DNA of 64,000 nt from Hydrurus foetidus (Eukaryota), in assembly GCA_900617105.1 (NCBI GenBank), contig UYFQ01000740.1:1-64000 (forward strand), written 5' to 3'. Position numbers and translations under genes: made by a program. Position 1 is the first letter of the stretch; each line of letters starts with the position of its first letter. The notes beneath the pieces are model-generated. The model ran no database searches, had not been told where the DNA came from, and saw only the letters and a list, made by a program, of their open reading frames with translations. This document shows positions 4,931 to 30,840 of the stretch, one piece after another.

Positions 4931-5109
4931 CTTACACATATATACATCCTTGAAACTTTATCCATGAGGATTCTCTCGCATTTTTTTACCTACAAGGTCT
5001 TTTTTGGAGAGTTTAGTCAGTAAAAGTCTGACATAATTGTTTCAAGTCCTTATTAACATATATGTACTGTCTCTTTCATTTTTCATAGCACACATTATTG
5101 TAGATTTTT

Positions 5110-5129
5110 GAAAAAGGAAGAAGGGGTAG
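5110..5129 (+). other. polypurine tract
   Basis: gaaaaaggaagaaggggtag immediately before TG, downstream of the pol stop. Confidence 0.75.
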
Positions 5130-5304
5130 TGTAGCCTTATGTATCCCTATGAGGATACAATGTGATTAGGTTCACTAGGTACAATAGGCTCATTACGCCC
5201 AGATCCCAGTGGAGGTCCTAGATCCACGTAGGATATGTGTACCCTTAGCGGGCACATCACCTTACTTATTCAACTGTAACTATAATCACAACGTTATCCT
5301 AACA
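5130..5304 (+). repeat. putative 3' LTR (right end uncertain)
   Basis: Starts TGTAG right after the PPT; candidate end CTAACA at 5299-5304. There is no 5' LTR in the window to confirm it. Confidence 0.45.
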
Positions 5305-5814
5305 ACGTCGCTTTCCTGCGTCCCTCCGTTTCCCGCTCCCCGTCCTTCCAACTTCGTTCCTTCGTCCTAGGCCCCGATTTAAGCCATACACTTGTATGGT
5401 CACGTACACACGTACATACGCACGTGCACATGTTAGTACAAATTATTATATGCATACGTACACACACGTACTTACACATGTATGTACATATATAATATGT
5501 ACGTACGTACGATCGCCAATAGCGTAGTACATAGATGTATAGGTGTACATACGTAAGTACCACTGTACTTACGAATGTACGTTCTTATACATATACATGC
5601 ATACGTACCCCTGTACTATCGCCATGTATCAGTTAGTACGAACCCTCTGACCTCACGCAAATGAACGTTCGCCTTTCATGATTCTTCAGTATCGCCAAAA
5701 CACTTCGTTACTATAAGCATTTATGCAACGTTCCTCAAGCACATGCTATGAACAACACATCTCGCTGTGAACTTTGTCTCAAGGTAGTTTCACTGTCATG
5801 AACTGTTACGATAG

Positions 5815-5980
5815 CTCTTTTGCGTGGCTATCTGTAAACTCTAATCAGCTCCGTCTAATACGTTGTACTTCACAGCTTCGTCTACTCGATAGCTCACTGA
5901 ATTGAGACAGTAGCCTGCAGCTGCTTCTCCACATTCGCTGCGAACGCTAGAAGGTGACATCTTGTATTTAGTCTTACAAT
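5815..5980 (-). repeat. dispersed repeat homologous to the internal part of the hAT element (~21878-22038)
   Basis: ctgcagctgcttctccacattcgctgcgaacgctagaaggtgaca matches the reverse complement of 21897-21941 with two mismatches; similarity extends over ~150 nt. Confidence 0.8.
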
Positions 5981-6477
5981 AAGTAAACACATTTTGTAGA
6001 TTGTTATTGGTATGCAATGTGCATCAAGTCGCTTCCTCAATGCCAATTCGTATCACGTATATTGCCATTGTTACACCGTAATAATCACAGCTGTATAGTA
6101 TTTATCCGGTACTTGGTACCAAAAGTCTAGCTTTTGGTACAAATGTCATATTTACAGTTGGGTAGCTACTATCTCGCCTATACAACAACGCAGATGTAAA
6201 TCTGCGAAAGCCAGTCAAATTGCATGCGCATGACGTCTGCGATCTTATTATTGTACGGCAGGTAGAAATAACATGCAACATGAATTTATGCTTTGTGGCC
6301 CCCGTGCCAGTTTCTAATTCTTAAAAAGAATATACTAACCAAAACCTTCCCATCTTCATTTGGCCATCCACGATATGCCCTCCCGACTTCGTGCCAACGC
6401 GTGGAAACTCACATGGTAGCGATTGAAGCCTTCAAAACTTCAGAGATAGTTTTAAAGAGCCTCCGTCCAATAGAAAC

Positions 6478-7200
6478 ATGGCGAAACGAAAGAAGGGCCA
6501 GGGGCCATTTTCATCTGAAGATGATGAGGAGCCACCGCAGCCTCCTCCCGAACAACTAATACCTACTCTCCCCCTGACTCCTGCATTAGGAATTGAGGAG
6601 CCTCCCATCGGTGTTGTAATCGATGAGGAAAGCCCTCAATTCCGGGAAGCTTTAGATAGAAGAATCGCTCAAATCCAGTTGCTAAGAGATGAGAGCCCGA
6701 TTACAGATAATCCGCTAGGGTTAATCGACATCGCGCCAAGGGTGGATCTGCCGTTAGGCGATCAACCCTCGTCTAGGAGCACTGAGATAAGAGCGATTCC
6801 ACTCAACCTCCGTCCGTCAAGTCCGATACCGTCCGATGATGAATCGTCCTTTAGTAGTAGTAAAATTTCTAGTAGATTGAGTATCGGGGGAAACCCTCGC
6901 AAATATTTTTCGAGTGAGTCCTCAATAACGACAATGAAGGGTCGAAAGGACTCTAATAATAACATTAATGATAAAATCGGATCGACGCCGCGGCAAGCAG
7001 AATTCTGGGATAAAGATAGTAGTAGCACTGATAAAGAACAAGAGAATAAATATTCGAAGAAGAAACCATGCAATAAAATGGTCAAAAGAATACATTATCG
7101 AAGGAACTCCACTGTCCTATTATCCGGAATAGGAAAATATGTAATCGACATAAATATGCCAGACAAATTCGTACTCATGGTCATCGTACCGAGCCAATAA
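6478..7200 (+). CDS. low-complexity ORF of unknown function, possibly a TE relic
   Basis: 240-aa P/S/D/E-rich ORF in a TE-rich zone, no recognisable domain. Confidence 0.25.
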   Translation: MAKRKKGQGPFSSEDDEEPPQPPPEQLIPTLPLTPALGIEEPPIGVVIDEESPQFREALDRRIAQIQLLRDESPITDNPLGLIDIAPRVDLPLGDQPSSRSTEIRAIPLNLRPSSPIPSDDESSFSSSKISSRLSIGGNPRKYFSSESSITTMKGRKDSNNNINDKIGSTPRQAEFWDKDSSSTDKEQENKYSKKKPCNKMVKRIHYRRNSTVLLSGIGKYVIDINMPDKFVLMVIVPSQ

Positions 7201-7823
7201 TGACAGAAGAAAATACTCATGGATTCTCGAATAGGAAAATTATATTAGTACCTAGAGTAGAATGACACGATGACGTTTTTTGATAATATTGTCCAGCAAG
7301 GTGCTTTTGTTGTAGCTTCGGTTGAGTGAATGGTGACTCGAAAGCTGTTTCGCAACTGTAAGAGAAATGCCGGATAATTTTGAAATTCCTTTTGCTCGTA
7401 ACAATGCTTTCTTTGAAAATCCACAGTTCCTTGTGATTTCATCGTCGAGTGCACTGGACGCTAGATTCTCACTGCTATTCTCAGCCATTCCAGCTCGAGA
7501 TTCTAGGATATGCTGCACTGTCGACGATTCGATGGTGTACTATAGTGTGATTAAGAATTTTCGTATTTGAATTCTGCTGAATTCAATTTCTCGATTGAAT
7601 TCGATGGCCTGTTTTTAGGGGTGTTGGATTCAGAAGAATTCAATGGTAAAAATCGACTGAATTCATCTGAATTCTCCAGAATTTGGCAAAAATGGCCAAA
7701 AAAGTGGCGATGTAGAATGACCCTAAGGCTTGGCCTTACGGTCTCTGTACGAAATTACCGTTTTTTATTTTTCCTTTCAGTTCCAAATTATTCAAATTCT
7801 TGGTTCTTTGGTTCTTGATTCTG

Positions 7824-7885
7824 GGTTCCGAGTTCCGAGTTCCGAGTTCCGAGTTCCGAGTTCCGAGTTCCGAGTTCCGAGTTCC
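7824..7885 (+). repeat. heptamer tandem repeat (GTTCCGA)n, about 8-9 units
   Basis: Read directly. A shorter reverse-complement version lies at ~15173-15201, upstream of the second AK gene. Confidence 0.9.
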
Positions 7886-8067
7886 AGTTTGAAATAATGA
7901 AATAATGCAGCAACGTATCCTACACAGCTGATTCAACATGGGTCAACTGTGCACATCATCAACAATTCCATGTAGCCCAAAACCAAACCTCTAAGCGTCT
8001 TCTCTCCCTCCAGCCCACTGGTTGATGAAAACAACTGGCAAACAACGAGCACACAATCTACGTCATA

Positions 8068-9613
8068 ATGATGAATTTCTATTCGCGTTGGCCACTTCTG
8101 TGCATCATCCTGGCATCAACGATCATTGTTACCACCAATGGTCACTTTACAACAAGATTTTCTCATGGGGTCGTTAAATCGAACCCATCTGTGAACACGC
8201 TTTCCTTTAGAGGTGTTGCACAGCAACGGAGGAAAAGAACTCTCGAAATGGTCAACAAAAATCAACCTTCGACAACACCAAAAATCATCATTGCGGGAGC
8301 ACCGGCAGCTGGGAAGGGAACCCAGTGTGAAATGATAAAAGCCAAGTACGGTCTAGTACACCTGTCGACCGGAGATATACTGAGAGAGGCTGTCAAGCAA
8401 GGAACACCATTGGGAGTAAAAGCAAAGGCATTCATGGAAGGTGGGCAGCTTGTCCCCGACGACTTGATAACGGGACTGATATGTGATCGCTTGAAAGAGA
8501 GCGACTGTCAGACCAACGGGTGGTTGTTGGATGGCTTTCCTCGCACGAGATCACAGGCAGAGGCTCTGTCAAGTGCTGGTATGGTGCCTGACTGCTTCTT
8601 GATGTTGGATGTTCCCGAGGATATTTTGGTGGAGAGAGTAACTGGAAGAAGGACTGATCCTGCTACTGGCAAGATCTATCACATGAAGTTCAATCCTCCA
8701 GAGAATGACGAAGTCGCATCACGACTGGTGCAACGCAGTGACGATACAGCTGAGAAGATAATAGTGCGTTACAAGGAATTTCAAAGTCACATCGAAGCAG
8801 TTAAATCTTGCTATGAGGATAAGATGGTTCGTGTGGACGGCAGTACATCACAGGATGCAGTGCGCAAGTGCGTCAGTGACGCTATAATTCGAAGTATGCT
8901 ACAATCGACAGAAGTTAAAAAGAACACAAACTTAAGAATCATTATTGCGGGAGCTCCAGCAGCTGGGAAGGGAACCCAGTGTGAAATGATAAAAGCCAAG
9001 TACGGTCTAGTGCACCTGTCGACCGGAGATATACTGAGAGAGGCTGTCAAGCAAGGAACACCATTGGGAGTAAAAGCAAAGGCATTCATGGAAGGTGGGC
9101 AGCTTGTCCCCGACGACTTGATAACGGGACTGATATGTGATCGCTTGAAAGAGAGCGACTGTCAGACCAACGGGTGGTTGTTGGATGGCTTTCCTCGCAC
9201 GAGATCACAGGCAGAGGCTCTGTCAAGTGCTGGTATGGTGCCTGACTGCTTCTTGATGTTGGATGTTCCCGAGGATATTTTGGTGGAGAGAGTAACTGGA
9301 AGAAGGACTGATCCTGCTACTGGCAAGATCTATCACATGAAGTTCAATCCTCCAGAGAATGACGAAGTCGCATCACGACTGGTGCAACGCAGTGACGATA
9401 CAGCTGAGAAGATAATAGTGCGTTACAAGGAATTTCAAGGTCACATCGAAGCAGTTAAATCTTGCTACGAGGATAAGATGGTTCGTGTGGACGGCAGTAC
9501 ATCACAGGATGCAGTGCGCAAGTGCGTCAGCGATGCTCTTGATAAAGCGGCCGAGAGCAGACGATCATTACTGGAAGATACTTCTGGAACAGTCAAAGAA
9601 GTGAAAAAGATAG
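8068..9613 (+). CDS. ADK: plastid-targeted tandem double adenylate kinase (exon 1; probably spliced to the LrgB exon; the unspliced ORF ends at 9624)
   Basis: Signal peptide and transit-like leader, then two AK domains with GAPAAGKGTQ, HLSTGDILR, WLLDGFPR and the chloroplast-type GRRTDPATGKIYH..QRSDD. Confidence 0.93.
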
Positions 9614-9700
9614 GTATCCCATGAAATTTTTGCAAATTAGACTTTTTGATGTTGATTTAAGTATAACAGCTAACTTTCCTTAACTTTGTACTAATCTCAG

Positions 9701-11028
9701 GACTTCTCGACATTCAAGGAGGATCAACAAGTCAATTGTCAACATCTCAAAAGTCCATGGGTCAAGCGGCATTTGGAACACTATTTCTAATTGTGATGGA
9801 CAAAGCTATAGCTAAACTATTCAAGGCGAAGAACTGGTCATTTCCCTCCGCTCTCGGTGCCATGGTGGGAGTCTTTCTGACACTGTGCACATTCCGAGTG
9901 TTTAATGAAGATCTAGCGGAAGGCATTTCTGATGGTCTCTCTCCTGCAGTCTCGTTGATAAAGGCCTGGTTGCCCTTGTTCTTCGTACCTCCTCTTGTCG
10001 TGCTTCCCTTGAAGATGCATCTTTTGAAAGGTGTTGGTGTCCAGCTCTCACTAGTGGTCGCGATTGGGTCTGTTCTGTCTCTCACTTCCGCGGGATTATT
10101 CGCACAACTGGTAGACAATTTGTTCCCTGTCACCAAGGTGGAGGGTGCTGCACCTGCTTCACCGGTGGTTTCCGCTCCCCTTCCATCTCTGCCTCCACTA
10201 TCCATTCCTGCAGCAGCAACCGCATTGTTCTTGGCAGGCAGCAAACTACTCCCCCTAATTGCCCCTTCAGCATCTCCGATGGTACGCGGTCTCGTGCAGG
10301 GTGCCTTCGGGGCAGCGGCTACTGTAACGGGCTATATTACAGGCACCAAGCTACCTGCGAAAGTGAAGAAAATCGCACATCCCGTTTTGATCTGTGCTGC
10401 ACTCACCACCGCATTGCTGGTAGTATTTGGGTCACTCAACGGAATCGCAACTGCAGCAGTGCTGTCACAGTACTTCGGGTCAGGGTCAATGCGAGGATCA
10501 GGGGACATCATATCGTCTATGCTGGGACCGGCAATCATCAGTTTTGGAATCCAGCTCTACCAATACAGAGCAATGCTAAGGGAGAACATTTTCAGAGTCA
10601 TGAGCACAACAGCATTTTCAGCCTCTTTTGGTCTCACCAGTTCAGCTTTACTAGTCAAGGCCTTCAAGTTAGCACCCAAGCAGACTGCCTTCGCTCCTCT
10701 AACAAGATGCATAACAACCCCTCTAGCCTTGGCCGGTGCCCGTCTGACCGGCGCCGACCCCTCACTGTCGGCATTCGTCGTGGTGGTGACAGGTATTCTC
10801 GGTGCTAGTCTTGGAGAGTCATTGTTGGAGGCCGTTGGAGTTAAGGAACCTGTCTCAGTCGGCTTGGCTGTTGGTGCTGGTGCCCATGGCCTGGGCGCGG
10901 CTGCCGTGGCTAACGATCCTATCAAGTTCGCGTCAGCGGTAGTATCAATGACGTTGACAGGTCTCTGGACTGTCGCCCTCATGTCGTATACTCCACTCAG
11001 GCAGTGGCTTGTGAAGTTGTGTCTGTAG
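9701..11028 (+). CDS. PLGG1: LrgA/LrgB family multi-TM transporter, PLGG1-like plastid glycolate/glycerate transporter (exon 2 of the AK fusion)
   Basis: LrgA-like FPSALGAM..WLPLFFVPPLVVLPL; LrgB-like LGPAIISFG, RCITTPLAL, VVTGILGA, GLAVGAGAHGLG; no presequence of its own. Confidence 0.85.
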
Positions 11029-11185
11029 TCTAGTAAGTGAGACTATCAATATCTGTTGGCCTACAGCCTGTACATAATTAGAACTCCGTTACTCCCTACA
11101 GAATGTTCCCTACTTTTGATTGTAAGAATTATTCTGCATCATCACATCGCAACGTGATAGGGGCAGATCCGGTAAATTCGGTCGT

Positions 11186-11342
11186 ATTCACGTCTTCAGT
11201 GGTGTCAATGTTACTATGACGTTGACAAGTTTGTGGGCAGTCGGTACTTCGCCCTCGCAGTGACTCGAGATGTTCTGTATGTAGTCTGTCAAGTGAGGCT
11301 ACCAATATCTATTGCTATACAACCTGTTCAGTATTAGAGCTC
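11186..11342 (+). pseudogene. degenerate tandem duplicate of the LrgB 3' end and 3' UTR (copy of ~10927-11087)
   Basis: Shared blocks in the same order: tcaatg, atgacgttgaca, gcagtg, tgtagtct, aagtgag, caatatct, attaga. Confidence 0.65.
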
Positions 11343-11646
11343 AGTCATAATCAAAATTTTCAATTCTTGATTTCGAGAATTGTTACGTATCGTCATACCG
11401 CAATGCTCCGATCTGGTCACTTTAGTTATTTTCGCATCTGCAGCGAACTCTACCACTTTGACAGGTCGCCGTGCATTGTTCTCGCGCGACCAGTGGCATG
11501 GGCCTGTTGTTCGGTAAGTGAGGCTGTCAATTCGTTGTGCTTTCTGCCTGTATTTGTGAAACGGTCCATCAGACGTCGTATTCCCTGATGTTTATTTCGG
11601 TATCGCGTTACTGGGATGTGGTGAGGGCAGATCCATTTAGACTGGT

Positions 11647-11662
11647 GGTGTTTAGAAACACC
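11647..11662 (-). promoter_or_regulatory. histone mRNA 3' stem-loop (H4)
   Basis: Minus strand CAAAAC-GGTGTT-TCTA-AACACC-ACCA, about 40 nt after the stop. Confidence 0.85.
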
Positions 11663-11700
11663 GTTTTGGGAGTTGATCGATATGGAGTACTCGGAGTATT

Positions 11701-12045
<345 letters not shown>

Positions 12046-12237
12046 TTATGACAACGATTCCAATCCTTGAAAAACAACTCTCGACTCTTGGGTGACCGGT
12101 GACCTTCTTTGTTCACTCAGCATGATGGTGCTCCACACGAGAAAAAGGAAAACGCTTTCATACATAAAAACTGAAAATGTGAAGTGACATCTGATCTGCT
12201 GAACAGAGCGTGACTAAATTCTTCACAGTCTATCTGA

Positions 12238-12687
<450 letters not shown>

Positions 12688-12734
12688 ACTGAGAACAGTC
12701 CCAGACGAAACCATAGTCTTCACAAAACAACAAA

Positions 12735-12750
12735 GGTGTTTCTCAACACC
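12735..12750 (+). promoter_or_regulatory. histone mRNA 3' stem-loop (H3)
   Basis: CAAA-GGTGTT-TCTC-AACACC-ACCA, 47 nt after the stop. Confidence 0.85.
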
Positions 12751-13266
12751 ACCAATAGCAAAGGAAAAACCAATTTTGTGTTGGTATGATCTTATCTCTC
12801 ATAACAGTGGGACCGAATGCCGCCATGTACCGACGTGGCCACACTGCAGTGAAGACTCGCTGGTATATTTCAATAATTATGACATATAATCTTTGCATTA
12901 GTAACTGCGGAAATCATCGAACTGACACTTGACATTCACCAGCGAGGCATTTAATGGCCTCATTGTATCAATCTTCTTCAGTGGTACGCTCGGGCACCCT
13001 ATAAAACTTGATGATCTGCGTATGGAACAACCACTTATTATCACAGTCATAACTCTTTTAACTAAAAAAAACATGAAATTGGAAACAATCTTGAAATACG
13101 GGTAAGGGTAGAGTCCGTGATCGAACTCTAGACTAGTCGCCCAATCGCTACAAGGACCGGACATCGACTTGCACCATACTCTGGAACAAGTCTTTATTCA
13201 GATATTCGATCTTACATACTAGACGACATGCGTGTGGAGATTAGATACTGCTGTACTTCCTTCAAG

Positions 13267-14894
13267 TCACACACCTATATTCGTTATAGAGAAAGGTAAT
13301 TAGTGCGTTTAAGTCGGATTAGTACGAGTGTCCCTCATTGAAAAAATGATCACGTACCTATTTTAGACAGTTCCTTAACTGAATCTGACAGCGATGATCG
13401 TCTGCTCTCGGCCGCTTTATCAAGAGCATCGCTGACGCACTTAGATACAGCATCCTGTGATGTACTGCCGTCCACACGAACCATCTTATCCTCGTAGCAA
13501 GATTTAACTGCGTCGATGTGACCTTGAAATTCCTTGTAACGCACTATTATCTTCTCAGCTGTATCGTCACTGCGTTGCACCAGTCGTGATGCGACCTCGT
13601 CATTCTCTGGAGGATTGAACTTCATGTGATAGATCTTGCCAGTAGCAGGATCAGTCCTTCTTCCAGTTACTCTCTCCACCAAAATATCCTCGGGAACATC
13701 CAACATCAAGAAGCAGTCAGGCACCATACCAGCACTTGACAGAGCCTCTGCCTGTGATCTCGTGCGAGGAAAGCCATCCAACAACCACCCGTTGGTCTGA
13801 CAGTCGCTCTCTTTCAAGCGATCACATATCAGTCCCGTTATCAAGTCGTCGGGGACAAGCTGCCCACCTTCCATGAATGCCTTTGCTTTTACTCCCAATG
13901 GTGTTCCTTGCTTGACAGCCTCTCTCAGTATATCTCCGGTCGACAGGTGCACTAGACCGTACTTGGCTTTTATCATTTCACACTGGGTTCCCTTCCCAGC
14001 TGCCGGTGCTCCCGCGATAATGATTCTTAAGTTTGTGTTCTTTTTAACTTCTGTCGATTGTAGCATACTTCGAATTATAGCGTCACTGACGCACTTAGAT
14101 ACAGCATCCTGTGATGTACTGCCGTCCACACGAACCATCTTATCCTCATAGCAAGATTTAACTGCTTCGATGTGACCTTGAAATTCCTTGTAACGCACTA
14201 TTATCTTCTCAGCTGTATCGTCACTGCGTTGCACCAGTCGTGATGCGACTTCGTCATTCTCTGGAGGATTGAACTTCATGTGATAGATCTTGCCAGTAGC
14301 AGGATCAGTCCTTCTTCCAGTTACTCTCTCCACCAAAATATCCTCGGGAACATCCAACATCAAGAAGCAGTCAGGCACCATACCAGCACTTGACAGAGCC
14401 TCTGCCTGTGATCTCGTGCGAGGAAAGCCATCCAACAACCACCCGTTGGTCTGACAGTCGCTCTCTTTCAAGCGATCACATATCAGTCCCGTTATCAAGT
14501 CGTCGGGGACAAGCTGCCCACCTTCCATGAATGCCTTTGCTTTTACTCCCAATGGTGTTCCTTGCTTGACAGCCTCTCTCAGTATATCTCCGGTCGACAG
14601 GTGCACTAGACAGTACTTGGCTTTTATCATTTCACACTGGGTTCCCTTCCCAGCTGCCGGTGCTCCCGCAATGATGATTTTTGGTGCTGACATTGGCTGA
14701 CTTTTGCTTATCATCTCTATTGACCCCTTTCGTCGCGGTTCTGCTTCACCTCTAAAGGAAAGCGTGTTCACAGATGGGTTAGATTTAACGACCCCATGAG
14801 AAAATCTTGTTGTAAAGTGACCATTGGTGGTAACAATGATCGTTGATGCTAGGATGATGCACAGTAGTGGCCAAAGCGAATAGAAATTCATCAT
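13267..14894 (-). CDS. ADK: second plastid-targeted tandem double adenylate kinase, stand-alone (unspliced ORF ends at 13350; a probable intron 13357-13275 gives the C-terminus KIGV*)
   Basis: Near-identical to 8068-9613 in both AK domains, with the same ATAG|GTA donor at the end. Confidence 0.92.
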
Positions 14895-15423
14895 TATGAC
14901 GTAGATTGTGTGCTCGTTGTTTGCCAGTTGTTTTCATCAACCAGTGGGCTGGACGAAGTGAAGATGTCGCGTAGTTAGGGCAAGGTTTGCTGCTACAGTT
15001 GATCTAAAGGTACTCTGATGTTATCGACGCTGACTGGCAGTATATTGAATCACGATCAACGCAGCGTTGCTGGTGCTGGTTGCTGTTCGCTGACTACCGA
15101 TCGGAACTACATCGCAGTATAATCGGAGTGGAGCAAAGGGGGGCCTAGCTAGAACTTTCCTAGACACAAGCGCTCGGAACTTTGAACTCGGAACTCGGAA
15201 CCTGCAGAATGTGTAACCGTAGATAAAGGACAAAGCTCCATGCTCCATTCTGCGTGCTTGCATGGTTGTGAATTGTGAAGCCCTGCAGCCCTGCTGACTC
15301 TCAGCAGCTTGAGCTGTTCACTCTGTGTTAATTGAATCATTCCTCTCATAGTGCCTGTAGGCGTCGATGAAATGAGTTTCTGCTACGCATCATTGGACAG
15401 TTAAGGAAAACTTTTATTTCAGG

Positions 15424-18850
<3,427 letters not shown>

Positions 18851-21336: not shown

Positions 21337-22907
21337 TAAGGGTGGTGGCCAGGCCAGTTTTTTTTAGCCAGCCACTGGCCATTGGCTAGGCCAGTTATCT
21401 GGCTAGGAGTTACCGGATAAGGCTGGCCATCCTAGCCAGGCTGGCTAACTTTTTATTTTCGTTGGCTGGCTAACTATTTTTCTGACTGGCTAAATTTTTT
21501 TTCTAAGAGACCCCGATTTGAACCCAGTTGGATGCCTACGGCATATTGTGAGGTGGGTGAGAGTTTGTTTATGGGCATAACTAATTAGTTACACTAATTA
21601 GTTACAGTGTCCTGTGTCAATCTCTGCAATTTGTCAGCTATAAGTTTATGTTATTTAATTGAGTCTGATTTACTACCTACAGGAAGTTATCAATGTTGAA
21701 GTTAAGCTAGATAAAGTGATATGTTCAGTATAGTTATGGAGTATATAATTTATCATTACTATGTCACTTGCATCGACCTTAACATGTATAGTTAGTGTAA
21801 TCAAAAACATACACAATATACATACCTAAACGACTATATTGTGTACCCAAAAAGTGGTACACCATTTCAACCATATATGTAAGACTATCGAACAGTTGTC
21901 ACCTTCTAGCGTTCGCAGCGAAGGTGGAGAAGAAGCTGCAGTCTAGCTTCTCAAATCAGGGAGCTATCCAGTAGACGATACTGTGAAGTACAACGTATTA
22001 AGTTCTGCTTAGAGTTAACAGATAGCCACACAAAAGAGTCACATTGAATACATTTTTATCACAGGCATACCATCAACGTCAATTGACCGTGAGCAAGTGT
22101 GGAGGGCAATAAAGGATCTCATGATCGAGCTGTAGGTAATGAGACATAACGCCTGCGCCTGGAGTCCCGAAATTGCCGTTTTGAATGGAGCAAGAGCTTT
22201 ACCAACTGATGAGGACCCATGGGGAGAAGAAGAAGAGGAGGTTCCCGAACCTGGTCCTCCTCCATTGAATATGAATCAAGTTCAACGAGCAGTTACTGCA
22301 GAACTTAATGCACACAAATCCATACTGAGAATAGATATGAGAGTGACATTAGAAAATGGTGACAAAGGTAAATACATTGACCCATTAACATGGTGGAAGG
22401 ATCGCATAGAAAGCTTTCCAACGTTTTGCCAGATAGCAAGGAAAGTACTTTGCATTCCTGCTGCGACTTCTGCCCCATCTGAGAGAGTTTTTTCTGTAGC
22501 AGGACTCACCATTTCGAAAATGCGTTCTAGACTAGACAGCGAAAATGCTTCGTGTCAACTGGGACCTTAGTGATCAAATGAATTCTCCCCAGGTGGAAAT
22601 ATTGAATTAACTATATGAAGTTTGATTTTAATAATGAGATGCATTTCCATATCATGCCGTGCTAAGTAGAACATCATTTCTAATATTGGCTGAAGAGTAA
22701 GTAAATAGATAACTAAAACAAATGAAAAATACACGGATTTTCTCCAATTTCTGTATTTTGGCCAGGACTTTGGCTAACTTGTTCAGTCAATCTAATGGCC
22801 AGTGGCTAGGCTAACAATCATGCCTTGGGCTAGGATTTGGGCTAAGATCAGACCTTTTTTCGGCTGGCCCGGCTAAATCCGATAAAAGGGGCTGGCCACC
22901 ATCCCTA
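21337..22907 (+). mobile_element. non-autonomous hAT DNA transposon
   Basis: 16-bp TIRs TAAGGGTGGTGGCCAG / CTGGCCACCATCCCTA (2 mismatches); perfect 8-bp TSD CGTATACT (21329-21336 and 22908-22915); subterminal GGCT/TGGC repeats. Confidence 0.92.
22139..22570 (+). pseudogene. hAT transposase C-terminal dimerisation-domain fragment
   Basis: [37 protein letters not shown]. Confidence 0.88.
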
Positions 22908-24074
22908 CGTATACTGTACGCCAATCTGGGGGGAGGTTAAATTTTAAATTTCTATTTTTTCGTGTATCATTATGTGTAGGATAATATGTAGGATGCACAG
23001 GTATCATTGGATTATTGACTGACAGGTATGATGTTGACTTAAGTGTATCATGAAGCTGATATTCTACGAAAATACCAATGATGTCGTCATCGATATTGCT
23101 CCTTATCGCCTCAATCAACAGAAACAGGTGGAGAGAGTATTTTCTTTACTGAACTCTTAACTTAACAATTAGCAGCACCAGCGTTCCATAGCCATGTAGA
23201 GACTTCTGCCATTATTACTTTCAAAGAGAACTTCCGCGAAAGAAAACAGTGCATGGTGCATGTAGGAAATACCAAATAATAAAAGTCGAATCATCAGATC
23301 ATTTTTGAATGTTTAAAATGATTGATTCAGTGATTGAAATATGTTGCTGGTACGGATTTCGGTTCATCTGGATTACGGTGCATGGCAGCATAACACACGT
23401 AATTGATTATCTTTCTATGCTGATTTCAAGTGGCATAATTGAGCTGTCATGTAACATGATTAAATTTTGAGAGGCATAATCGAACACCACCGCGGAGCAA
23501 TTCACCTCCAAAAGACGAAATTGTAAACAGGAAGTTGTTTTTTTGCTGGATTAGTTTTCAGAGATCGTGTGGCATAATTGCGATATTAGAGTGTTTGCGC
23601 ATCTGAAATTACTGAGACTCTGCGGACCCTGGATTTTTCTAATTCCCCGAGATTTTCCGTGTTTTGCAGATTTCTTTTTCGAAAACCGTGATTCTCTCGC
23701 AAATTTGCGAAATCAAATTGTTGAGATCCCGTGAATCTCTGCAGGGGATTTGCGAGATTCTCGTAAATTTCAAGATTGTGGGGGTCGGACCGGGAAAAAG
23801 GGGGTCAGAATCTCTGTAATTTCCAATGCGCAAACACTCTATTATCCTGAAGTGGGACAATGGAACCGCAATTGCAGCAGTAACCTGTAATCGACAATAA
23901 CTAGCTGACACCCCGAGCTTTGTAATCGTCTCCACAAGTCGTTAGCCCTCCACGCTCCACGTACTCTAACAATAAGCAATAGGTATGCGTATGGTGCATG
24001 CTGCTGCTACACTGTTTGTTGCAAGTAGTATTTCGGGTTGAAGGCTAACTTGAAGCTTTCCTACTGGAACTGTC

Positions 24075-26066
24075 ATGAATTTCCCAGCTTCAACAAAGTG
24101 CTCGGCGTGCGGAGCGGTAAAATGTAAAATGACTCCGCACCCTCTACTCGAAGTACCTGTCTGCGAAAATTGCTCAAATGCTTATCAGGGAGAGTTTACC
24201 ATAGACAGCGTCACAGGCAACGAAATCTACTGTAGGTGGTGCGGAGAAGGGCAGGGGAGCATCTCGCTTTGCGATTCATGTCCGAAATCGTTCTGTAGTG
24301 GATGCATTCAGCGTAACTTCGGATTGGCGGAGAGTACTCGAATACAAGGATTGAGTGAGCGTTGGAGCTGCTATCTATGCTCGCCTCAAGCTCTGGAGGA
24401 TTTGATTGAGAAAAATGGCTGGAATATTGAGGTGTCAACTAGTTCATCAGCGGGGCCTGTGAAGAAACGGAAGGCGGCCAACGACCCAAACATTATTTGT
24501 AGTGATGTTAGTAGGGGCAGGGAACGTTTCCCCATTCCAGTGTACAATGATGTCGATCATGTGCCAGCCCCACTTGACTTCACCTACGTGACGAGGCATG
24601 TTGCAGGCGATGGTGTAACCATCACTAATAATCCGAGCTTTGTATCTTGTTGTTCATGTACGGATAACTGCCAGGACGCCTCGAAATGTGAGTGTGCGAG
24701 ACTTATGGGTGGGTTCGCTTACAATAAGAATGGGATATATCTTTCTGAGAAAGTAGAAGGAGTTTACGAATGTAATCAGCGTTGTTCTTGTCACGTAATG
24801 CGCTGCAAGAATAGAGTTGTTGGGAAGGGACCCCACTTAAAGCTGCAAGTATTTCGTTGTGCGGATCCGAACAAAGGCTGGGGTGTTAGGTGTCAAACAG
24901 CGATTCCTGCTGGGACATATATTACGGACTATTTAGGGGAGGTGATGCTGGAGTCTCATGCAGACGGCCGTGGTCTAAGTCGATCTGACGAATATCTTTA
25001 TAATCTCGATGCATGGGGGAGAAGTCAAGCATGCCAGAGGTTGTCTGAGCTCGGAATGAAGAGAGGCTTACTCTCAATACCGACAGAATGTGAGGTAGAT
25101 GTAAGCGCACTCACGAAAAATGAGGTGATGAATTTGCTTGGTGAGGAGCTTACTGAGCTGCTCGATTCGAAAGGTGCTCTAGACAGAGCAATCCGATTAG
25201 GCGACAAGCAAGCCAAGGAGAATAGTGCAGCAATGGCCATGTGCATTCCATGCACTAGCACTACAAGTAGCACCTCTAAGAAACGTAAGTCCATTTACAC
25301 TGCAATCATGTTGTATGATCTTCAACACTCACATTCTCATTCATAAATCTTCGTATTCGCAATATGTTGCACCATGGACTGAACGACACAGGGGTGGGAC
25401 CTGTAACTGTCCCTGCACTTGGTGCCACTACATCTTGGTGGCAGAGCAGAAGAGTTTCCAGAGTGCAGGCGTGGAAGAAAGCGACAGAAACCATCAGCGA
25501 CAGAGCTATCATTGAGACGGAGGAAAATAACGACACCTTCACAGTGGATGCGAGGTACGTACTGTAGATACATTCTGTAGATCATTTAAACACTTCCGCA
25601 GATTTGCTTTTACATAATGAATCCAGGATTTATTCAGCCCTCAATTGAATGGCCACCTCTTCATGTCGAATTATTTTCCCTGTTTCTTATTTCTTATTTC
25701 TTATTTCAGACGCTTCGGAAGTGTAGCTCGATTTCTGAATCACAGCTGTAACCCGAATCTTGATATTGTCACGGTAATGGTGGAGTCACACGATGTCAGA
25801 ATACCACGGTATGACGCACTTCGTTCTATTCCTAAGTAACTTTTTTTATTTTGTCCTAAGCAATGGTACGTGAGATGGGGATGCAATGAAATGAAATGAC
25901 AATTTTTGTTCGATGACTTCGTATCAGGGTGGCTTTTTTCAGTGCGGATGCTATACCGGCCATGACGGAACTCTGCTACGATTACGGCTACTATGAAGGA
26001 AATGTCGAGGGAAAAAGTCGAATCTGCTTGTGTGGGGCGCCTGCCTGTCGGAACGTTCTGTACTGA
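24075..26066 (+). CDS. ADD zinc finger + pre-SET/SET/post-SET histone lysine methyltransferase, SUV39/SETDB1 (H3K9) class; 4 exons
   Basis: ADD: CSAC..HPLLEVPVCENC..YCRWCGEG..LCDSCPKSFCSGCIQRNFG..WSCYLC. Cys-rich pre-SET; KGWGVRC; RFLNHSCNPN; ELCYDY; CLCGAPACR. Introns ~25285-25391, 25555-25709, 25809-25927. Confidence 0.9.
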
Positions 26067-26460
26067 TCCCTCTGTTTTATTTTTGTCTGATCTGACATCC
26101 GTTTTGGCAACTTATCCTATCTTTTTTATACTTTTGTGATTGATAATTTTATTATTTCAAGAAGAGGAAATTATCTTTCATTATAATTAATGCATGCGTA
26201 CGCACAGAGAACGTGGATGAAGAGAGTAAGGTGCGATGTATCTTGTCAACGTCAAAGAAAGTGACTGGTAAGTCACGCGTAGCTTTGCCGTGACAGACGC
26301 AGTCTATTAAATAAGTAATAATGCGATATAAATATGCTTAAATATTGAATAGAGAGGACTAGACAAGAGGGACATCATATCCAATACAAAACGTATCAGT
26401 CTGTACAAAATTTTGTTATACACCATGTGGCATGAAGATTGCAGTGTGCTGCAAAATTTA

Positions 26461-28740
26461 TCAACTGAACTTAGCGTCCATTCGATAGGAGGAAATCCTT
26501 TTCAGTACAACGGGTTGTAGAGCACCAGCAGCAGCTGTGTGCGATTTTGTGCTATCCGCTTGACTGCTCCCACTAGTACTGGCTGGAGACCGAGAGATAT
26601 CAGCCATAGGGGCATGAGACTTTCCTAACATCACCAAGGCGTGCGAGACGATTTTCTTCATGCTCGATTCAAGCTGACCTTCCATGAAAGTTCCTTGATA
26701 CTTCAGGAGCGAAGCCACTATATCCGAGACTGTCATTGCCTCCACAAAAGGTAATCCCAGTCCCAACTCATCTATTCTAGCGATGAGCCGCGCCTCTACA
26801 CTGCACACAGATACGTCTGGTAGTGTCCGTGGGTGGGACGCATTCTTGCCCGAGAAGGAGTACTTGGAGTAAATGTCGGTACCATGATCTTTGGGCCCAA
26901 TAAAAAGAGGGAAGATCTTGTCCAATAGTCCTCTTTCTCTCAACTCCAGTGCAAGGACAAACTCAAGCAGAAGGTGGTCGCATTGAGAAGAGCTGTCGAG
27001 AGAAGTGAAGCTGCCTATTGCCTCTCTAGATATCACCGGGAGAAAGGCTTTGCTCTTCATTAGACCGACACAAAACCCGACATCCCAGGGCTCCCCCGGT
27101 TTGAGACATTCCTTGTCCCACCACACCCTCAGCCCTGCACTTCGTAACATGTTGTACAGCATCTCAGCATGTACACTGTCACTGGCTACGCGGTAGGATA
27201 AGAAAACATCATACTCTGCTTCATCATTTATCATGCGGCATATTTTCTTTCCTGTTATGAAGGGGTGTACGAGTACGTGGCGTATACTCGGTCGTTTCCT
27301 TGGTTCTTTTGAGAGCAGTAGAGATATTAAATTGCGCGCAGCAGTGTTTTTCACTCTGGACAGTTTTTCGACTTTCAGACTGTCTGACCATTCAGCCAGT
27401 AGCCTTAAGTCGCTCTCCTCAATATTGCCGTCACCGTCACATAGGAACAAAGGAGCGTTAGCTGCGATGTTATAGATGACCACGCCAAGAGACCAGAGAT
27501 CGTGAGTCTCTGAGGCAGGAACAAGCTCGAAGTCGAAGTCACAGCTCTGATTGTCCCGTCTGTGATTAGCACCGTGCACCCTGTGATTCGGCATATTTGC
27601 CTTTGAACGTACGCACACCACAGAGTCCGTACAGTATATCAACTCTGGGCATACGTAGCCCGAACTGAACTTCATGGCGGAGTATTCAGTACCGGAAATG
27701 AATGAGACTGATGCATCCAAATCGATCAATTTCATTTGCTGCCCTACTCTCATGATATTGAGCGCTGATGTAGTGAAGAGAAGGAAGGAGGAAGGAAGAG
27801 GGCAACGAAGAAGGTTAGGGGAGGAAAGGGGAGCGAAAAGAAGAGGAAAAGCGTCAAGAGGGAGAGGAAGAGCTGTGATGCAGCAAAATGAAGTGGCGAG
27901 AAAAATTTGGTAGGTATATCCAATAAGAATGAGGTGAGCCAGCTGAGGGCCATTGAGGGAATGCAACAGGCACAGTGAGATGTATGGCTAAAAACTGGCA
28001 GAGTAAAAAATTTACAAAATTACGGAAGGAACAATATCGGGTAAGTTGCATGAGGACAAGGGTATGTTATGGTGGAATGCAAGAGTAGAGATGATTCAGC
28101 GACATGACATGATGTGGAAATATTGATGGAATGTGAGAGGCACTCACGTTTGAGGTCTCCGTGAATGAATCCATTGAAATGCATGTGTCCCACAGCTGAT
28201 GCGATCTGGCATGTTATCATGCGAATCTGATCCCAGTCCCTGCCCGCTAAATGCTCTTTCACCATGACGTCACCGAGGTTTCTCTCGCCGACATGCATCA
28301 CAAAGCAATACGGGAAATCAACAAACCCCTTCGCAACAGCTTCATCTCTGAAGTCTGGATCTTCATCACAGTCATGCACTCTAATGCCTCCCATAACGTG
28401 CACCTCGCTGAAGTTACCCAGCGCTCTCACACGCACTTCTCGTAGGAATTGAGCACGCTCTTTCATGAATTTCATCGCCACCATTTTATCGTCATCCTCG
28501 CTTTCGTGGTCAACGGCAAGATGCACTATGCTTGTTTCGGTCTGCAAGAGATTAATTTTTCAAAAAAAATTGGCTTCGCGTTAATAAAGGGCGATTGAAT
28601 GCATTGCGATGTATTGTGTCTAGTGCAGTAAGTATGTATTAGCAATGTGCGAAGTCATACTCCTAAGGTCAAAAAGAAGATGACAAAGAAGAATGCCACT
28701 GCAACGTGTCTGCGTGTGTACATGAATAGTGTTATGTAAT

Positions 28741-28774
<34 letters not shown>

Positions 28775-30334
28775 CTTGTAATGTGGCTGTGCCAAAGTCA
28801 GAATCTCGTACCGCCTGAAGAACAGAAGGTACCGCATGATCGCTTTCTTGCACTTCGGAGATGCAATGTGCACGACCTGCCTGCCCTCTCGATCTTCAGC
28901 GATACTAAGCTGCACCGCGATGGAGGGATAGAGGGAGAGCACGAACACTATTGCGTACTCGTACTTCTCGTACTGCACAGCTCGTGTCCATGCGTACTCG
29001 TGTTGAGCCGCATCGACTGGCAGTTCAGTCATCGGATCCACCGGTAGGCTATTCATGAGTAACTGGGTCACAGCTCGTACGTCAGCATCGGGGTAGTCCA
29101 GTATAAGGGTGAATGCTGTGCGTCCGTCATAGTCCTTCATCTTCGCAGTATCGATGTGCTCCGCAATCAAAGTCAACAGCGTGTCTACTTCCACACGATC
29201 CAATATGCCTTTGTGCAATGGCAGCTTCTTCAAAAACGCAGCACGATTCGCTGCTAATGCTTCAAAGTCAGATTTCGCGGTCTCAATTTTCTGCAACTCT
29301 TTTTCTCGAGTGATGTATTCCTTCTCAGCATTTTTTCTTTTCTTCATTTCCTCCAATAGAGCATATTTATTTTGCAGAAAGGATGACATTTTTATCCGCT
29401 CGGTTTCGTAGAGAATGAGGAGCACAAAAAGAGAATACAGTATATCCCACAGATTTATGTATCCTTGCAAATAAATGACACCCCAGGCGACCCCTGCAGT
29501 GGCGATACACCATGACAGAAATAATGCATTTTTGGGTATGCCCTTTATGCAGATTTGCATGAACAGAGGATTTATATACGATGACAGTATAGCGTCAGTA
29601 GGCGGTTCGTAACTCAAATCGCTCGGATTGCACCCAGATGCTTGGAATATTGAAGTATCATCGGTACATCCACCATACAATACTCTCGCCACCAGGAAGG
29701 TAAGGGTGCATATCGAGAGCAGAATACAAATGGTACTCTCAATGTCGTCAAAGAGCAATTTTCGAATAATTGATCCAGCGATAACTTGCAATCGCGTGCA
29801 GGGAAATTGTGACTGGAGATGTAAGGTGAACAGCTGGCTGAAGTTTTTGGAAATGTAAAGGAAGTAAATGCATACTCCGAAAAGAAATAATGTGAAAGAG
29901 GCAATAAAATAGGGGCCTTGATAAACACTGTAGGCCAAATTCAAACGAGTGAACGAAATTCCCGCTATCAAAAGACAGAACCCCCAAAAAGCAGGCGCAT
30001 GAAGCTGCGCTTTCATGTATTGGCTGTAGTGCATCTCATCGCTTTTATCGATGAAGTCCAGGAATACGGAAAATTTTGGAGCTTCACGAGGACTTCGCGA
30101 ATCACTGAATGTCGCAGTTGTTCCAGTTGCGTCATCTGGGTTGTGATATGAAGCTGATAATTCGACGGGAAATTTCTTCCTAGAGTTTACAATAATATCT
30201 CTCACGGAGCTAGAATGATGATTTGGTCTGGGTTTCCGGAATTGTTTCACTCTGCCATGCAAGGATCTACTGAGGTCAACTTCGAATGCTTCATCATTAT
30301 CCGAACCACATTTTTGATCATTCCGTACGCTCAT
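26461..30334 (-). CDS. multi-pass membrane protein with ankyrin-like repeats, Ser/Thr kinase and C-terminal TIR domain; 3 exons
   Basis: About 6 hydrophobic helices; DYDGRTAF and DREGRQVVHIA; VAMK, HGDLK|PLN, DLD, CPE, DLWSLG; TIR YDVFLSYR..LRVWWDKECL..FLPVISR. Exons ~30334-28775, 28541-28149, 27764-26461. Confidence 0.85.
28743..28772 (+). repeat. (GT)n microsatellite at the start of an intron
   Basis: Read directly. Confidence 0.9.
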
Positions 30335-30840
30335 TGAACTGTCCTCGATTTCAATGTGAAGGCAAGAAAGGCTTAGCGAATTCTTCACATTCGGCAGCCT
30401 GTCACATTAAACGACTTGAAAATCTCGTGGTGGGCATCTTGATGGGGGGATACTCCAAATAAAAGCCTTGCTAGCGTCAGTCAGAATGGTTTACTGTTTA
30501 TTTCTTGTTATACTACACAGAATGATCGAGATCATCCCATCTCTCTCTCGTCGTGGTGCAGAAAACAGAAAAACTGTTCCAGACGAAATTCCGTCTTTCA
30601 TAGAAGTACGGTTTTCAATTGAAGTTCAACGAAATTCGAAACTGCACATCACTCACAATTCACAGTGGCTTGCTTCATAGCGTTCTCGTGGCACATAATC
30701 GCCTTTCAACACCCTCTATGAGCTCTTACAGGAGCCAAACGTGATAGTTTAGAGTGCTACAAAGTTTTCTGCAATAATTCTTTCCTCTCATTTCTGGGTT
30801 TATCGGTATCAGACAGTTGAAGGAAGACAAAACGCTCCCG

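Follow-up and report, generated by a model that had tools for sequence, protein, structure and literature searches.

The window analyzed here, a 64,000-nucleotide stretch of Hydrurus foetidus DNA (contig UYFQ01000740.1), carries on its + strand, at positions 24075–26066, a gene of four exons with a single open frame of 536 amino acids that ends in a TGA stop codon. Its three introns (107, 155, and 119 nt) all have GT-AG boundaries. Exon 1 (24075–25284, +) encodes the ATG, an ADD domain, a linker, the pre-SET domain, the first half of a SET domain, and the start of an insertion, and is followed by a GTAAGT donor at 25285. Exon 2 (25392–25554, +), placed by a CTGAAC then ACAG acceptor and by frame continuity, encodes the end of the insertion and the FTVDAR motif. 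Exon 3 (25710–25808, +) carries the RFLNHSC motif. Exon 4 (25928–26066, +) encodes ELCYDYG, with the Tyr of the Phe/Tyr switch and the catalytic Tyr, followed by the post-SET CxC-x4-C motif and the stop codon. The product aligns over residues 6–536 with two complete database proteins, P0006 (67% identity) and P0104 (65% identity), and the related metagenome loci L001 and L004 break where introns 2 and 3 lie in this gene. A contig from sequencing run X4 covers 23857–26150 unbroken and differs at a single letter and by a gap of 14 nt in intron 2. Seven RNA reads (one sample, two runs, ~6% of each read) lie over the exons in the orientation of a + strand transcript. No splice joint was found among them at the listing threshold, and the RNA support is thin; the RNA runs X1 and X2 gave small word shares and three short contig pieces, which are not counted as evidence. 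A possible 5′ intron at about 23983–24056 was rejected, as it has no read support and no nearby in-frame upstream ATG, and the starts of the relatives match that of this gene. The database record of the gene (P0001) and those of many relatives end at the first intron, without the second half of the SET domain, and automatic annotation therefore misses the full architecture. The ADD domain, pre-SET domain, and first SET half all lie within exon 1, so their fusion is not an artefact of the gene model.

Several other features were observed around the gene. A MITE-like element (23582–23846) about 230 bp upstream of the ATG has 41-nt inverted ends that are 88% complementary and is present in one copy in the window; its summed contig depth in run X3 is 5,000–18,000, compared with ~112 over the gene, so it is likely a high-copy repeat. 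The remnant of a hAT transposon at 21349–22828 contains a dimerisation domain (22136–22570, PF05699, E 3e-16) between 35-nt inverted repeats. The convergent neighbor (26461–27987, −) is an ORF encoding the C-lobe of a protein kinase followed by a TIR_2 domain; it probably forms the 3′-terminal exon of a larger gene that includes the upstream ORFs at 28020–30406, and is possibly immunity-related. In the region 7998–14964, an ORF with two tandem units, which we take from their motif to be adenylate-kinase-like, is duplicated in inverted orientation (1582 nt, 96%); between the copies lie an ORF for a membrane protein and, at 12277–12687, a gene for histone H3. A pair of inverted repeats of 123 and 34 nt, at 5815–5978 and 21878–22038 and thus about 16 kb apart, possibly represents two copies of a small mobile element.

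The N-terminal domain (residues 8–112; 24096–24410, +) consists of a GATA-like finger (residues 9–33) and a PHD-like finger (residues 53–102) with 12 zinc cysteines. A sequence search of the PDB matched it to the ATRX ADD structures 2jm1, 3ql9, and 2lbm (E 1e-19, 73.8 bits), far ahead of the ADD domains of DNMT3B (47 bits) and DNMT3L (37 bits). The Pfam ADD models gave no match to this protein at E ≤ 1; their cut-off was passed by two of the 11 close relatives scanned (P0010 and P0043) and by the distant members P0134, P0224, P0227, and P0229. Because these models miss the protein, the evidence for the ADD is its sequence match in the PDB together with the alignment of the 12 zinc cysteines, and the HMM search proposed in the preliminary description recovered the Pre-SET and SET domains but not the ADD domain. 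In a structure model of P0006, the fingers are followed by a helix (residues 109–118), and pLDDT is 71–87 over residues 11–120. The full-length model has a pTM of 0.48, which is too weak for placing the domains relative to each other.

The catalytic module begins with a pre-SET domain (residues 146–247; 24510–24815, +) that matches PF05033 with an E-value of 2.8e-22 and a score of 79.6 bits against a cut-off of 29.1; its cysteines are invariant in 32 aligned members. Pfam matched the SET domain in two pieces. The first half (24846–25010, +) contains GWG, YLGE, and DEYLYNLD, and the second half with the post-SET region (25538–26048, +) is distributed over exons 2–4 and ends in the tail ELCYDYG...CLCGAPAC. 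All 16 close and all six distant complete members keep the GWG, YxGE, RFxNHxC, and ELxxDY motifs and the post-SET CxC-x4-C intact, including the Tyr equivalent to Y1067, the NH pair, the Cys of NHxC, the catalytic Tyr, and the three post-SET cysteines; the aspartates of DEY and LD are likewise invariant in the family. In the PDB, the module matches H3K9 enzymes best (G9a, E 5e-35; Clr4, 9e-26), and ASH1L, NSD, and SETD2 appear only at E ≥ 3e-6. The closest solved relatives are G9a/GLP, Clr4, SUVH6, and SUV39H2, and fold searches concur. A search of the ESM Atlas with the whole of P0006 returned ASHR3- and NSD-like PHD+SET proteins (0.91–0.92); we regard these as look-alikes in domain make-up and dismissed them because both sequence and structure matches favor SUV39-class enzymes. 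Membership in the SUV39 class, as originally proposed, is borne out.

At the Phe/Tyr switch, residue 508 of this protein, all of the 16 close members have Tyr; Trp is found there in 10/10 SETDB1 rows and 5/6 distant ADD-SET rows, Phe in all EHMT, SUV39H, and DIM-5 rows, and Tyr again in the 7/7 SUVH rows sampled. The position equivalent to a substrate-binding residue of G9a, which we number as D1088, is occupied by N, Q, T, D, S, H, or E in different family members. With Tyr at the switch, G9a, DIM-5, and Chlamydomonas SET3p are reported to add no more than one or two methyl groups (PMC1807958, PMC2797608), and the predicted product of this enzyme is therefore K9me1/2.

The insertion that interrupts the SET domain (25011–25537, +) spans intron 1 and comprises a conserved helical core and a variable, low-complexity middle. 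YLYNLD ends at residue 312 and FTVDAR begins at residue 453, so that the "roughly 140 aa" of the preliminary description proves to be exactly 140. The insertion sits at the profile position where the SET domain of SETDB1 is split. Across close members it is 119–295 residues long, with an identity of 47% in the core and 17% in the middle, and in P0025 it is modeled as helices with pLDDT 91–96 over most of the core. A Foldseek search of the PDB gave SET-domain matches alone among the matches listed, and the leads from the ESM Atlas were all under 0.9, so that these searches assigned no known fold to the insertion. The SETDB1 motif KEGYE, which contains K867, follows DEYxxxD immediately in P0134 and P0228, two of ten distant ADD-SET proteins with sequence at this site, as it does in many SETDB1 rows; it is absent from this gene and its close members. 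In the close subfamily, a lysine (K329 in this protein) lies 17 residues past the LD motif in 52 of 62 sequences. The K867 hexapeptide of SETDB1, KEGYES, is reported to be ubiquitinated by UBE2E1 without an E3 (PMC10858943).

A search with exon 1 gave 87 matches out of 3339 candidates. Of these, the 72 top-ranked are close relatives with 41–86% identity, leaving aside the gene's own truncated record P0001; the remaining 15 are other SUV39-class enzymes that match more weakly. The family comprises about 70 close relatives and ten distant ADD-SET proteins, and at least 44 sequences carry both parts. The named close members are Chlorochromonas danica, Hydrurales sp. CCMP1899 (taxid 2985, Chrysophyceae), and Ochromonadaceae sp. 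CCMP2298, all of which are chrysophytes. The distant proteins with an ADD before the pre-SET domain are P0134, P0224–P0229, P0366, P0374, and P0454, in addition to the fragment P0451. Some of them have further domains: P0229 has Tudor (PF21743), chromo, and ADD domains before the pre-SET and a split SET with a Trp switch, giving three candidate readers; P0454 has an ankyrin repeat and an ADD before the pre-SET and a short SET insertion; and in P0134 an N-terminal region precedes the ADD and pre-SET, with the KEGYE motif and an insertion of 441 aa behind them. The N-terminus of P0134, which gave no match in Pfam, presumably resembles an AP2 DNA-binding domain, judging from its motif. Among 80 metagenome loci, 11 have an ADD match to a profile built from this family and ATRX rows; in viral contigs, none of 103 pattern matches was confirmed. 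The mean identity to 33–39 relatives is 60% for the ADD, 62% for the pre-SET, 66% for the N-terminal SET half, and 28% for the linker, which indicates that the ADD is as constrained as the catalytic part. The complete fusion of an ADD to pre-SET, split SET, and tail, the central claim of the preliminary description, is confirmed by the PDB match, the Pfam Pre-SET and SET matches, and the single exon that holds the ADD, the pre-SET, and the first SET half.

Phylogenetic trees were built from the catalytic domain alone, leaving out the ADD and the insertion, and without an outside outgroup. In a tree of 69 rows, the close subfamily forms one clade (100/99), and all 22 family rows group together (81/92) as sister to SETDB1/2 (88/80). 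In a tree of 34 rows, from which redundant and long-branch rows had been removed, the corresponding values are 73/91 for the family and 77/38 for the sister relationship. AU tests reject none of the alternatives, which place the ADD-SET proteins with SUV39H/DIM-5 (p 0.34), EHMT (0.11), or SUVH (0.30), or join only the close subfamily to SETDB (0.10). When the newest distant members are included (46 rows), the single clade of all ADD-SET proteins is lost, and the ADD-bearing proteins fall with SETDB and SUVH into a grade whose branching is not resolved, separate from EHMT, SUVR5, SUV39H, and DIM-5 (96/78). Most of the non-family matches in the profile search are of the SETDB1 type. The label "SETDB1-like" accordingly stands for the insertion site and for the KEGYE remnants in distant relatives, but orthology does not follow. 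Pfam scans found no Tudor or MBD domain in this gene or in the close members scanned, and since the K867 motif and the Trp switch are also absent, the protein should not be filed as a SETDB1 orthologue. The sisterhood to SETDB1 is not statistically established. Judged from its sequence, the protein is a SUV39-class enzyme predicted to work like SETDB1 and SUVH. A bolder and, in our estimate, doubtful reading is that the ADD-pre-SET-split-SET arrangement is an old, possibly ancestral, protist form of the SETDB1/SUVH H3K9 writers and adds a third major class to the ADD proteins. If so, the K867 self-ubiquitination motif and targeting to unmethylated H3K4 would predate the Tudor-MBD readers of animals and the SRA readers of plants, and the docking of DNMT3 ADD domains on SETDB1 would echo a fusion that survives in protists.

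The pocket residues of the ADD were compared in 44 ADD rows aligned to horse ATRX, with human numbering. These rows were picked by a pattern requiring the four GATA cysteines and H/N-P/S, and those columns are thus conserved by construction. The eight PHD cysteines are retained in 44/44 rows (one of them in 43/44), the E252 position is Glu in 44/44, and the D233 position is Asp in 40/44. Within the acidic loop that binds the H3 tail in ATRX (D207, D208, D212, D214, D217, and E218), the rows are mostly acidic at 208 (36/44), 212 (D/E, 33/44), and 217 (E/D, 40/44), and mostly not at 207 (Gly, 37/44), 214 (gap, 28/44), and 218 (Ile, 33/44). We take D212 and D217 to be the residues in contact with K4 itself. 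The Y204 position is Tyr in 39/44 rows, the I209 position is F/Y in 40/44, and the Q219 position is Y/F in 39/44, DNMT3B likewise having Tyr there. The Y203 position is Ala in this protein, with F/Y in 2/44 and His in 8/44 rows. In ATRX, Y203 is described as the sole aromatic residue of the K9me3 pocket (PMC7764450). The six-acid mutant of ATRX is reported to abolish binding of an H3K9me3 peptide, the six acids being needed together, and H189N and E252L to weaken H3 binding more than Y203A (PMC12900699). From these residues, the pocket of the Hydrurus protein seems suited to an H3 tail whose K4 is unmethylated and unsuited to reading K9me3 in the manner of ATRX, which fits the predicted K9me1/2 product; Y37, F41, and Y52 could nevertheless build another pocket.

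We propose, with a probability of roughly 0.55, that the protein is an H3K9 mono- and dimethyltransferase gated by unmethylated H3K4 through its ATRX-type ADD. The substrate would be H3K9, as expected from the enzyme class, and the product K9me1/2, as expected from the Tyr switch. With its retained pocket acids, the ADD would read the H3 N-terminus bearing unmethylated K4 and be excluded by K4 methylation, and with Y203 lost it would not read K9me3 as ATRX does. Because the reader and the catalytic site both require the first ten or so residues of H3, the ADD would hold one H3 tail while the SET domain methylates a neighboring one; GLP itself is described as contacting H3K4 and R8. The outcome would be a default silencer barred from active promoters by H3K4 methylation, that is, the logic of DNMT3/3L placed in a histone writer. 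Counterpoints to this proposal are that the K4 pocket is kept only in part, the D207, E218, and D214 positions being changed, and that the D1088-like position of the catalytic domain varies. A role in transposon silencing would be plausible given the class of the enzyme. Our search for work on H3K9 methylation in chrysophytes returned, among the sources it covered, nothing on this group and dinoflagellate work only. Across eukaryotes, histone marks are reported to correlate poorly with their canonical writers (10.1101/2021.11.30.470311).

The preliminary description favored a read-write enzyme that spreads its own mark. Such an enzyme would bind methylated K9 through a pocket rebuilt from Y37, F41, and Y52 (ATRX positions 204, 209, and 219). 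The prevalence of aromatic residues at exactly these positions, the proximity of the ADD to ATRX rather than DNMT3, and the comparatively mild effect of Y203A on ATRX binding (PMC12900699) speak for it; against these stand the loss of Y203, the similar aromatics of DNMT3B, which is nevertheless described as an H3K4 reader (PMC7764450), and a predicted product of K9me1/2 rather than K9me3. Read-write spreading needs a reader that binds the enzyme's own product, and with Y203 replaced by Ala this part of the preliminary description is not supported. The loss of Y203, the two retained K4-site acids, and the Tyr switch together make a writer gated by unmethylated K4 likelier than a self-propagating one, which we consider unlikely.

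It is rather improbable that the ADD serves mainly as an allosteric switch, with self-inhibition relieved by H3, or as a docking module for H3-mimicking partners, instead of as a targeting reader. Both functions have precedents, as DNMT3 is reported to be allosterically activated by binding to unmethylated H3K4 and its ADD domains to bind SETDB1 and SUV39H1 (PMC4316174), and the ATRX ADD also binds macroH2A and CHD4 (PMC12900699). The short linker would suit such a role, and the conserved helical insertion of the subfamily could dock the ADD; the full-length model, however, is too weak to show interdomain contact, and the idea differs only in part from gating by unmethylated H3K4, with which it is compatible. 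Still less probable is a main substrate other than H3K9, be it elsewhere on H3 or in a non-histone protein. In favor of it are the long separation of the family on a branch of its own, the variable D1088-like position, and the possibility that writer specificity shifts among lineages (10.1101/2021.11.30.470311), but the pre-SET, the post-SET, and the best matches are all of the H3K9-enzyme type, and the DEY and LD aspartates are invariant. That the fusion arose by chance or mis-assembly, or that the enzyme is dead, is scarcely credible even though P0001 and many relatives end at the first intron in the database, given a fusion inside one exon, its recurrence in the ADD-SET family, intact motifs, and the independent contig across the gene.

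ADD domains are known from ATRX-type remodelers and DNMT3 enzymes, and to our knowledge, the readers in characterized H3K9 writers recognize either the enzyme's own product or methylated DNA. The arrangement described here is a conserved reader-writer combination within a known enzyme class that has apparently not been described before. We found no description of an ADD-SET fusion by title or abstract in the openly searchable literature; domain-architecture surveys behind subscription lie outside this scope and may mention it in passing. A survey of eukaryotic chromatin reports SETDB1/2 homologues with MBD or SRA readers and ADD_DNMT3 as animal-specific; its main text does not mention ADD_ATRX, and its supplementary architecture tables could list ADD-SET proteins (10.1101/2021.11.30.470311). 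In its accessible text, a review on stramenopiles mentions SETDB1 and EHMT2 homologues in Ectocarpus and no ADD (PMC3145265), and a 2026 study on brown algae contains no SETDB, SUV39, or ATRX in its main text and no ADD or SETDB terms in three supplements (PMC13076208). The absence from domain surveys may be explained by Pfam often missing the ADD and by gene callers cutting the gene at introns. If the proposed mechanism is correct, a sensor of unmethylated K4 within an H3K9 writer would explain, in one protein, the mutual exclusion of silent and active marks in stramenopiles. Its 536 residues also make the protein a compact enzyme that is amenable to testing, and it lends itself as a model for SET domains split by an insertion that is predicted to fold.

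The enzyme shares features with several known systems and differs from each of them. It resembles SETDB1/ESET/Eggless (KMT1E), its sister in the best tree, in the pre-SET domain, the site at which the SET domain is split, and the post-SET tail, and the distant ADD-SET proteins P0134 and P0228 even keep the KEGYE motif around K867. It differs from SETDB1 in having an ADD in place of Tudor and MBD domains and a Tyr instead of a Trp at the switch; moreover, KEGYE is missing from this gene and the rest of its subfamily, which carry a helical insertion of their own. With the SUVH enzymes of plants and green algae (KYP/SUVH4-6 and Chlamydomonas SET3p) it has in common the SUV39-class module, the Tyr switch, and the K9me1/2 product (predicted here), and a sister placement is not rejected (p-AU 0.30). 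SUVH enzymes, by contrast, use SRA, a reader of methylated DNA, and their insertion is about 23–33 aa in the rows measured. G9a/GLP (EHMT), SUV39H, Clr4, and DIM-5 provide the best solved-structure matches for the catalytic module, but these enzymes have ankyrin or chromo readers of methylated K9, a Phe switch, and an unsplit SET domain. The ADD shares with that of ATRX the GATA-like and PHD fingers, the 12 cysteines, the following helix, and the equivalents of H189/P190, Y204, D212, D217, D233, and E252; it is attached to a methyltransferase instead of a SNF2 ATPase, and Y203, D207, and E218 are not retained. As in DNMT3A/3B/3L, the ADD lies directly upstream of a methyltransferase domain and has Tyr at the Q219 position, whereas the catalytic domain here is a histone SET rather than a DNA methyltransferase and the ADD sequence is nearer to ATRX. 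DNMT3 is described as a silencing writer made sensitive to H3K4 methylation by its ADD (PMC4316174).
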